The notes under the pieces were generated by a model, which saw only the letters and a program-made list of their open reading frames with translations, searched no databases and was not told where the DNA came from. DNA of 64,000 nt, from the NCBI GenBank assembly GCA_964368755.1, contig CAYJCR010000001.1, forward strand, positions 70,074 to 134,073, in the 5' to 3' direction. Source of the DNA: an uncultured Lachnospiraceae bacterium (lineage in GTDB: Bacteria > Bacillota > Clostridia > Christensenellales > UBA1242). Both the position numbers and the translations under genes were made by a program. This document shows, piece after piece, positions 47,550-47,836 of the stretch (positions within the stretch are counted from its first letter, which is position 1; each line of letters starts with the position of its first letter).

Positions 47550-47627
47550 GGTGATTGTAGCTCAGTTGGCTAGAGCGCCAGATTGTGGCTCTGGAGGCCG
47601 TGGGTTCGAGTCCCATCTTTCACCCCA
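47550..47627 (+). tRNA. tRNA-His (anticodon GTG) with G-1; acceptor stem has two U-U mismatches
   Basis: G-1 plus GTGATTG...CTTTCAC-C-CCA and anticodon loop TTGTGGC. Pairs 5:68 and 6:67 are T:T. Confidence 0.8.
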
Positions 47628-47665
47628 AGAACGAAGACTTATGTTGTATAAGTCTTTTTTTGTTT
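47607..47665 (+). repeat. direct repeat copy 1 (3' part of tRNA-His plus its terminator)
   Basis: CGAGTCCCATCTTTCACCCCAAGAACGAAGACTTATGTTGTATAAGTCTTTTTTTGTTT recurs at 47778..47836 with one mismatch, located in the terminator loop. Confidence 0.95.
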
Positions 47666-47673
47666 ATTAATAA

Positions 47674-47778
47674 GCGGATCTCGAACGGTGCGTAAAGAAA
47701 AGCTACCCCAATGGGTAGGTTTTTAGCACCCGGCGTGATAGCGAGCCACAACTTCTGGCACCAGCCCCGAAGCGGAGC
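47674..47778. repeat. ~100-nt tRNA-associated element, copy A
   Basis: Shares the blocks GCGTAAAGAAAA-hairpin-TTTTTAGC...GCGTGATA...hairpin...TCTGGCACC with copies at 55974 (same orientation) and 56330 (inverted). Confidence 0.8.
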
Positions 47779-47836
47779 GAGTCCCATCTTTCACCCCAAG
47801 AACGAAGACTTATGTTATATAAGTCTTTTTTTGTTT
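47778..47836 (+). repeat. direct repeat copy 2 (orphan 3' end of tRNA-His plus terminator)
   Basis: 58 of 59 positions identical to 47607..47665. It lacks the 5' three-quarters of the tRNA. Confidence 0.95.

Follow-up and report, generated by a model that had tools for sequence, protein, structure and literature searches.

Small non-coding hairpin elements behind tRNA and tmRNA genes of Clostridia, with arms that match the local tRNA

The tRNA-His locus

Genes for tRNAs are classic landing sites for mobile DNA, and in all well-understood cases known to us the integrase is carried by the element itself. Here we analyze a short, gene-less element that lies behind the tRNA-His gene of an uncultured Lachnospiraceae bacterium, within a 64-kb stretch of DNA (contig CAYJCR010000001.1; hereafter "the window"), and that has relatives behind many tRNA and transfer-messenger RNA (tmRNA) genes. 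The window has a GC content of 37% and is a Clostridia-type chromosome, with SpoIVA, EngA, FeoB, ClpX, trigger factor, the dcw cluster, FtsA/FtsZ and SpoIIGA-sigE.

The tRNA-His(GTG) gene occupies positions 47550-47627 on the plus strand, behind a promoter-like site, TTGACA-17-TATACT, at 47495-47523 (plus strand; 11 of 12 consensus positions). ARAGORN finds the gene, which scores 61 bits against the Rfam tRNA model. Both programs recover a cloverleaf with a GTG anticodon, a G-1:C73 pair in which G-1 (47550) is encoded, and an encoded CCA, as expected of a functional tRNA-His.

The 3' end of this gene is present twice. The first copy (47607-47665, plus strand) consists of tRNA positions 56-76 (CGAGTCCCATCTTTCACCCCA) and a 38-nt trailer that contains the terminator hairpin AAGACTTATGTTRTATAAGTCTT at 47634-47656 and a T-run; the second (47778-47836, plus strand), which we call the right arm, holds the same tRNA positions, trailer and terminator. 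They are identical at 58 of 59 positions, the single difference (G47646 versus A47817) being in the terminator loop, and shuffles of the window gave no comparable match for a 25-nt piece of the repeat. This duplication, and the 112 bp that it encloses, are as the original prediction described them.

The enclosed insert (47666-47777) has 54% GC overall. It begins with an AT-rich filler of 8 nt, ATTAATAA (47666-47673, plus strand), whose counterpart in other loci is likewise AT-rich but unrelated and 5-25 nt long, and continues with a GC-rich segment of 104 nt. That segment starts with a degenerate antisense T-loop piece, the left arm GCGGATCTCGAAC (47674-47686, plus strand). Only its CTCGAAC matches tRNA-His, as an exact 7-nt antisense copy of T-loop positions 59-53, which bears out the antisense T-loop fragment previously proposed for this flank. 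Next comes a hairpin module at 47684-47740 (plus strand), made up of GCGTAAAGAAAA, a stem and loop at 47703-47718, TTTTTAGC, ACCCG and GCGTG; it scores 52.1 bits (E = 4e-8) with our covariance model of the module, R1. A variable arm, ATAGCGAGCCACAACTTCTGGCACCAGCCCCG (47738-47769, plus strand), shares TCTGGCACC with another copy in the window at 56040-56052, and in relatives it can be as short as 2 nt or exceed 100 nt. The last part is the conserved 3' end of the core, AAGCGGAG (47770-47777, plus strand), which is joined directly to tRNA position 56.

A 7-bp direct repeat, AAGCGGA, had been proposed to mark both edges of the element. It does exist, at 47672-47678 and 47770-47776, but it is not a feature of the family: the right copy belongs to the family-conserved 3' end AGCGGAG, and the left copy is peculiar to the window element.

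The 112 nt on their own show no exceptional fold on either strand (z = -1.3 and -0.7), and no plus-strand promoter-like site was found between the tRNA-His terminator and the element. In a terminator scan the module at 47684-47740 scored as terminator-like on both strands. As a separate observation, minus-strand promoter-like sites at 47846-47907 point into the element, and the module hairpin at 47703-47718 followed by UUUUCUUU would terminate an antisense RNA that begins with the antisense of the tRNA-His 3' end. Directly downstream of the locus is a gene for a 2318-aa protein with Listeria-Bacteroides repeats (47979-54935). Elsewhere in the window, a gene for a TraG/VirD4-type coupling protein (35005-37005) adjoins spoIIGA-sigE among core genes.

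The Rfam tRNA alignment flags two acceptor pairs of this tRNA-His, 5:68 and 6:67, as non-standard, and both are U·U, as had been noticed before. The further remark that such pairs are unusual for a functional tRNA-His does not make them a sign of a dead gene. A metagenome scan for the exact 3' end CGAGTCCCATCTTTCACCCCA gave 26 tRNA-His genes (L131-L156), none of which has the element and all of which carry at least one U·U. Opposite CUUUCAC, the 5' acceptor strand is GTGGATG in 21 loci and GTGAATG in one, each with one U·U, and GTGATTG (the window type) in three and GTGTTAG in one, each with two. The acceptor pair of the window, GTGATTG/CTTTCAC, thus recurs in L133, L139 and L140. Because all 26 element-free genes have the feature, we regard the U·U pairs as a trait of the native tRNA-His type and not as an insertion scar; one or two acceptor U·U pairs always accompany the 3' strand CUUUCAC in these genes, which looks like a conserved oddity of the type.

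These same genes speak against the idea that the 3' half of tRNA-His was swapped for a foreign copy borne by the element, leaving two mismatches and a crippled tRNA. The idea draws on the fact that the window locus, alone among 66, shows acceptor mismatches, and on a Logan contig (L001, ERR5322706_88315) in which this 5' half is followed by a different 3' half. This contig is identical to window positions 46722-47599, up to tRNA-His position 49, and then diverges into another tRNA-His 3' half (TACTCAC acceptor) followed by tRNA-Gln(CTG). However, the 3' part of L001 matches a tRNA-His/tRNA-Gln cluster of the type in locus L089, and L001 may be either a k-mer chimera, assembled across the tRNA core that both share, or a second arrangement that the sample really contains. 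Given that three element-free genes have the identical GTGATTG/CTTTCAC pair, we consider a swapped 3' half very improbable.

A family of related elements

The insert was predicted to be a foreign repeated element with further copies, and such copies exist both in the window and elsewhere. In the window, the covariance model finds exactly three, at 47684-47740 (plus strand), 55978-56027 (plus strand) and 56371-56420 (minus strand), with E-values from 4e-8 to 3e-5. Everything else it finds there has E >= 0.3 and is a generic terminator. The label "copy A" that had been given to the tRNA-His element is therefore justified.

The other two copies, K1 and K2, lie on either side of an intact tRNA-Lys(CTT) gene (56221-56296, minus strand), which at 55838-56483 is placed between two partial copies of itself. 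K1 (55970-56058, plus strand; model match 55978-56027, E = 3e-5) has the 5' end GGGCGCGAC and is inserted, antisense to the tRNA, in the T-arm of a duplicated 3' fragment of tRNA-Lys. It is flanked by the antisense of tRNA-Lys positions 76-66 (55959-55969) and of positions 58-48 (56059-56069), and a 139-nt repeat at this copy (55838-55976 versus 56100-56238) has 85% identity. K2 (56330-56426, minus strand; model match 56371-56420, E = 5e-6) follows a diverged duplicate of tRNA-Lys positions 1-43 (56427-56483), to which its 5' end is fused, and its other end is an inverted copy of positions 43-54 (56330-56341). Locus L089 has the same arrangement.

To search other genomes we used a core motif, GCGTWAAGAAAA-N12-24-TTTTTAGC-N3-6-GCGTG, in which the hairpin lies between GCGTWAAGAAAA and TTTTTAGC. 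In GTDB genomes we found 130 copies of it, spread over 116 stretches; with the three window copies the total is 133. Relatives that share this duplication around unrelated filler would have pointed to a plain tandem duplication; the core of the insert is shared instead. Since the motif recurs in the window and in 116 genome stretches, the insert is a member of a family and no unique filler, and its membership is secure. The carriers are nearly all uncultured Clostridia (Acutalibacteraceae, Ca. Fimenecus, Christensenellaceae, Oscillospiraceae, Lachnospiraceae, Eubacteriaceae and Anaerofustis), joined by Desulfitobacteriia and Syntrophomonadaceae.

Copies can be numerous within one genome. The metagenome-assembled genome JAFQOD01 has at least 10 near-identical copies on different contigs; together with the three in the 64-kb window, this is the dispersal into unrelated flanks that is expected of miniature inverted-repeat transposable elements (MITEs). 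The copies in JAFQOD01, which are of the C-type defined below (L016, L019, L033, L040, L062, L072, L080, L088, L090 and L096), sit in a larger composite repeat that has inverted ends of about 18 bp (GCCTCCCTTGTGAAAGGG … CCCTTTGACAAGGGAGGC), internal sub-repeats of 45 nt and tandem units of 172 nt.

Database searches gave no name to the family. No Rfam 15 family matches the element at the gathering threshold: the window matches only tRNA, the best other match in 47400-48000 has E = 2.8, and nothing overlaps the element in 32 other loci. BLAST searches of PLSDB plasmids and GenBank phages found no element matches, and the strict motif is absent from IMG/VR. A looser motif, which consists of the hairpin module without GCGTG, is found in 45 viral or proviral contigs of IMG/VR (L157-L201). 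Some of these are clear tRNA-arm types (L157, L163, L165, L172 and L182). Others have the module in unrelated multi-hairpin intergenic regions, such as between tail genes (L167) or before a phage gene (L166, L178). We also considered whether IMG/VR contigs of 6-9 kb might be single-stranded DNA phages with the module as a single-strand origin, but dropped this idea because L167 encodes tailed-phage proteins (Gp15). Targeted full-text searches of the literature found no description of the family. Thus, the elements appear to form a widespread family of a small, non-coding hairpin type that is apparently undescribed.

Anatomy of the elements

Read in the orientation of the tRNA, the parts of a locus are the tRNA, its trailer and terminator, the left arm, the core, the right arm and the downstream DNA. 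The element is about 85-190 nt long. The right arm is the local tRNA from a T-loop position to CCA. Of 57 measured loci, 32 have a right arm that begins with position 56 and 8 have one that begins with position 55. The repeat ends at most 7 nt from position 76 in 35 of the 57; in the rest it runs 9-317 nt further, through duplication of the trailer or in tandem arrays. With 38 nt past CCA, the 59-nt repeat of the window belongs to the longer group, and duplication lengths across loci range from 12 to more than 300 nt. Because the core is fused at position 55 or 56, tRNA positions 56-76 are present twice and the upstream tRNA stays intact.

The left arm is the reverse complement of the local tRNA from position 53 to about 65, including tRNA-specific bases, and in some loci it reaches position 69. 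Its family consensus, GGGAYTCGAAC, is the antisense of local tRNA positions 63-53. The fixed terminal inverted repeats and constant short target duplication of a MITE are therefore absent, since the arms follow the local tRNA.

Subfamilies diverge after GCGTG. A-type elements, which include the tRNA-His copy of the window, continue with ATAGCG, a variable hairpin and GCGGAG, and in 35 A-type copies GCGGAG is followed by CGARTCC. B-type elements have AGGCGGGTACCGAAA..., and in them a whole T-arm in antisense makes up the left arm. It pairs back with 4-5 nt of sense T-stem that precede the core, through a loop that is mostly of the GNRA type (manual tally). C-type elements begin with GGGCGCGAC, and K1 and K2 in the window are of this type. 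All types share one feature: a partial tRNA copy is interrupted by the element within a loop, or meets the end of the element there, and this copy ends in a fold-back of its own sequence.

The right arm has the geometry of an attachment (att) site: a repeat that starts in a tRNA loop (position 55 or 56 in 40 of 57 loci) and continues to where the gene ends, so that a whole tRNA is restored. The original prediction of a site-specific insertion into the T-loop holds to this extent, as the junction between core and T-loop, with a doubled 3' end, recurs at position 56 in 32 and at position 55 in 8 of the 57. However, classical integration does not explain the inverted left arm, or the relatives that are inserted in the opposite orientation or at the 5' half of tRNA-Lys.

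It might be proposed that mature tRNA was the source of the arms, i.e., that a reverse transcriptase copied the element RNA together with the 3' part of the local tRNA, and that snap-back synthesis made the inverted arm. Most repeats stop at CCA, which copying from the end of a mature tRNA would explain, one junction is precise while the other is variable and has filler, and self-priming yields inverted arms. However, all 65 of 65 upstream tRNA genes encode CCA, so CCA does not discriminate an RNA origin. In addition, 22 of 57 loci have trailer and terminator DNA inside the repeat, truncated copies lack the 3' part and not the 5' part, and neighbor clustering of open reading frames (ORFs) associated no reverse transcriptase gene with the elements. 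Retroposition therefore seems to us highly improbable.

Placement at tRNA and tmRNA genes

Among 85 copies that have a tRNA within 600 nt, 81 are downstream of it and co-oriented with it, typically with about 60-90 nt between tRNA and motif. The host tRNAs comprise 29 anticodon species, and many of them are stand-alone C34 isoacceptors, a pattern read from the locus table by eye. The upstream tRNA is intact in 65 of 66 loci. Copies also occur behind tmRNA genes (L048 3500-3974, L079 6422-6906 and L065 3700-4080), and L017 and L115 likewise have copies beside a tmRNA gene. Here the right arm is the tmRNA end from T-loop to CCA, and C-type copies have the opposite orientation. A terminator hairpin lies between tRNA and element in about 59 of 65 loci (49 detected by script and about 10 by eye), so the element is unlikely to be expressed together with the tRNA. 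Three Desulfitobacteriia loci have no terminator in this position.

Several other sequences were seen in such places. Gut-1 RNA (RF01706) has matches just downstream of a B-type element, beside a tRNA, at L037 4922-4993 and 5144-5215 and at L004 1104-1179. Behind tRNA-Gln in L136 (from about 873, minus orientation), L148, L142 and L156 there is a different core (…GGGGGCATTCCGAAGGAATC…) with the same layout, namely a terminator, an antisense T-arm (GGATTCGAACC), the core and a partial sense 3' end of the tRNA. From these sequences, the fold-back architecture seems to be wider than the GCGTTAAG family. In L120, at about 640-700, an antisense fragment of tRNA-Lys is cut off at the anticodon loop beside a block of variable genes, and has the look of an att remnant left by an island.

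The window insert might itself be a scar, i.e., the residue of an integrase-bearing island or prophage that once occupied the tRNA-His T-loop and was nearly all deleted, comparable to a cis-mobilizable element (CIME). A direct repeat from the T-loop past the 3' end is what classical att sites look like, integration classically targets genes for tRNA and tmRNA, and in L120 a truncated tRNA-Lys fragment flanks what looks like an island. However, one core of about 100 nt and one pair of junctions would have to survive in more than 100 remnants of independent origin, no copy has an integrase between its arms, and the sequence of the inverted left arm follows that of the local tRNA at each locus. 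We therefore judge this explanation to be quite improbable.

Hairpin structure and strand preference

The module forms a long hairpin with an outer helix of 2-7 bp, GC/GC, an asymmetric GUUAAG/A internal loop, an A-run/U-run helix in which one G·U is invariant, and a variable stem. In 39 gapless sequences, the inner 11-bp helix is 98% paired and all six of its variable pairs show double changes. The covariation score of these sequences is 0.321 versus 0.100 for shuffles, a value that none of 500 shuffles reaches, and every slid register scores lower. The strand in tRNA sense folds better in 98 of 103 unique modules, with a mean advantage of 3.75 kcal/mol. G·U pairs number 214 on this strand versus 64 on the other, with 103 of the 214 coming from the fixed motif. 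In 17 A-type copies the two arms can still pair as a closing helix, but its conservation is trivial because both arms copy one tRNA.

The fold asymmetry in tRNA sense and the compensatory changes might seem to indicate a functional structured RNA, which would serve the host or itself and be transcribed with or after the tRNA. Its closing helix would derive from the tRNA T-arm, a tRNA tail (acceptor strand and CCA) would form its 3' part, and copies would arise by local duplication. The sense-strand hairpins of most B-type left arms, which a manual tally finds capped by GNRA-type loops (GAGA, GUGA, GCGA), are in line with this, as is an element of Desulfitobacteriia that is situated between tRNA genes with no terminator ahead and is conserved in two genomes. 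However, the terminator hairpin found ahead of the element in most loci, the window copy's want of a plus-strand promoter-like site ahead and its poor closing helix all count against a functional RNA, and so do the absence of a matching Rfam family and the occurrence of relatives in both orientations relative to the tRNA. On this evidence, we think a functional RNA unlikely.

Turnover and the search for an enzyme

The two Desulfitobacteriia genomes, L064 and L071, share an element behind tRNA-Ser(TGA). Only L071 has a further copy behind the next gene, tRNA-Arg(CCT), which is absent from the orthologous locus of L064. The hairpin of this copy is the same as that of its Ser neighbor, and its arms are specific to tRNA-Arg. 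This suggests that the core was copied within the genome and the arms were re-specified from the new target. In addition, tandem arrays with units of 119-244 nt, often with a truncated last unit, are common (L002, L006, L008, L010, L021, L023, L025, L109 and L113). Unequal exchange between two T-loop copies would generate such arrays.

As had been predicted, the insert is too small for a recombinase: its 112 bp have no coding capacity. Nor was a recombinase found in or adjoining about 130 copies, or among the 21 larger ORFs of the window that were scanned, which are housekeeping genes or have no Pfam match. The recombinase gene that integrative elements carry between their att repeats is thus missing. 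Clustering of neighboring ORFs linked no protein family to the copies, and gave housekeeping genes, ABC ATPases and spurious ORFs over the element.

Searches for an empty site near the window used exact matches to the proteins of the flanking genes; all that they gave were short Logan contigs that break off at the repeats, and the 155-aa product of a neighboring gene has no homologues. At L025, homologues of the downstream regulator were on contigs with different synteny and no tRNA-Leu. An all-against-all comparison of the flanks of 116 loci gave only orthologues in the same state.

Comparison with known systems

For tRNA and tmRNA genes, Williams reportedly distinguished T-loop and anticodon-loop sublocations of integration in 2002, and CIMEs, as Pavlovic is said to have described them in 2004, are integrase-less derivatives of integrative elements. 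Our elements resemble both groups in the T-loop junction, the repeat from crossover to gene 3' end, the intact tRNA, the use of tmRNA and the tandem accretion. They differ in their size of about 100 nt, in having no integrase in any copy and an inverted, target-matched left arm, and in that one core is found at no fewer than 29 different tRNAs, with some relatives inverted or at the 5' half of a tRNA.

Like bacterial MITEs and hairpin repeats (Correia, RUP/BOX and REPIN), the elements are small, non-coding, multi-copy and intergenic, have long hairpins and are often beside terminators; the enzyme of a MITE is encoded elsewhere. Unlike MITEs, they have arms that are copies of the upstream tRNA in place of fixed terminal repeats, and a duplication of at least 21 nt from one tRNA position. 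Group IIC introns, IS1397 in REP sequences and IS1111 in attC similarly insert next to or inside stem-loops and just behind intrinsic terminators. However, our elements are far smaller and, with no Rfam match, have no intron domains.

The attC sites of integrons and the attP(+) site of CTX phage are recombination sites made of folded single strands. By analogy only, these folded sites of integron cassettes and CTX phage may be the closest parallels: they, too, combine two inverted target-like sites with a spacer of about 90-100 nt, a duplex fold on one strand, and arrays. Integrated CTX would likewise present an inverted site, a spacer of about 90 nt and a hybrid site beside the regenerated target. 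Unlike either system, the tRNA element carries no cargo of phage or cassette genes and lacks a site for XerCD or IntI.

A further lead is the IS91 family, whose terIS cleavage and target tetranucleotides are xTxG and GTTC (PMC13181058). On the antisense strand, A-type copies are bounded by xTxG (CTCG, CTTG, TTCG) and GTTC, a comparison of the tetranucleotides only (PMC13181058). The two share subterminal palindromes at both ends, the lack of terminal inverted repeats and, for IS91, single-strand intermediates that a folded strand would parallel (PMC13181058). However, the junctions of B-type and K-type copies do not fit, no HUH transposase was found, and IS91 elements, unlike the tRNA element, make no target duplication. 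The GTTC match may also be trivial because GTTC is positions 53-56 of every tRNA. We therefore give this sequence-level lead low weight.

Interpretation

We favor the explanation that the elements are a family of non-autonomous, non-coding elements that target the T-loop, preserve the tRNA and reside at the 3' ends of tRNA and tmRNA genes in Clostridia and Desulfitobacteriia, although we would put it as about equally likely to be right or wrong. An enzyme encoded elsewhere would move or copy the element, recognizing the near-palindromic T-loop (TTCGA) on either strand, and both arms would be copied from the target at insertion. The 59-bp repeat of the window, terminator included, would be a longer target duplication or else the residue of a tandem unit left by unequal exchange between T-loop copies. 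The U·U pairs would belong to the native tRNA-His.

Several points weigh against mobility of this kind. No pair of empty and filled sites was obtained in close relatives, and neither the clustering of neighboring ORFs nor the scan of window ORFs identified an enzyme. The orthologous copies with compensatory changes that are kept in two Desulfitobacteriia genomes would fit a selected function equally well. The inverted, target-matched left arm was not yielded by any standard integrase or transposase reaction that we modeled. The match of the window left arm to tRNA-His over just 7 nt suggests, moreover, that the window copy may be old or rearranged. Finally, since the module also occurs in unrelated intergenic contexts in IMG/VR, the module and the targeting of tRNAs may be separable and have separate histories.

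As to the reaction, we worked through synthesis-dependent strand annealing, target-primed reverse transcription, template switching and a simple integrase crossover by hand, and none gives the inverted arm without an ad hoc step. The TT|CGA junction on either strand, the inverted target-matched arm and the strand-specific fold would call for a process that copies the target on both strands. A bolder and rather doubtful hypothesis, which we offer tentatively, is that the elements are a new kind of protein-less mobile DNA. It would insert into the palindromic T-loop of tRNA and tmRNA genes on either strand and act through a folded single strand, both arms would be rebuilt from the target, and a partial tRNA copy capped by a fold-back or hairpin would be left behind. 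If this were true, the chemistry would be outside the known integrase, DDE and HUH schemes, and the hairpin module would be the recognition site of the enzyme.

A practical consequence is that the repeats of these elements break short-read assemblies at tRNA loci, as in contigs L001 and L118, which end there, and that the partial tRNA copies can pass for att sites or pseudogenes. What stands out is a gene-less element of 100 nt at the same T-loop position of dozens of tRNAs and of tmRNA, with one direct and one inverted arm copied from each target. As an RNA, it would be a widespread unannotated structured RNA fused to the 3' tail of a tRNA. If it is mobile, it would imply a trans-acting enzyme in gut Clostridia and a means of retargeting by copying the target.

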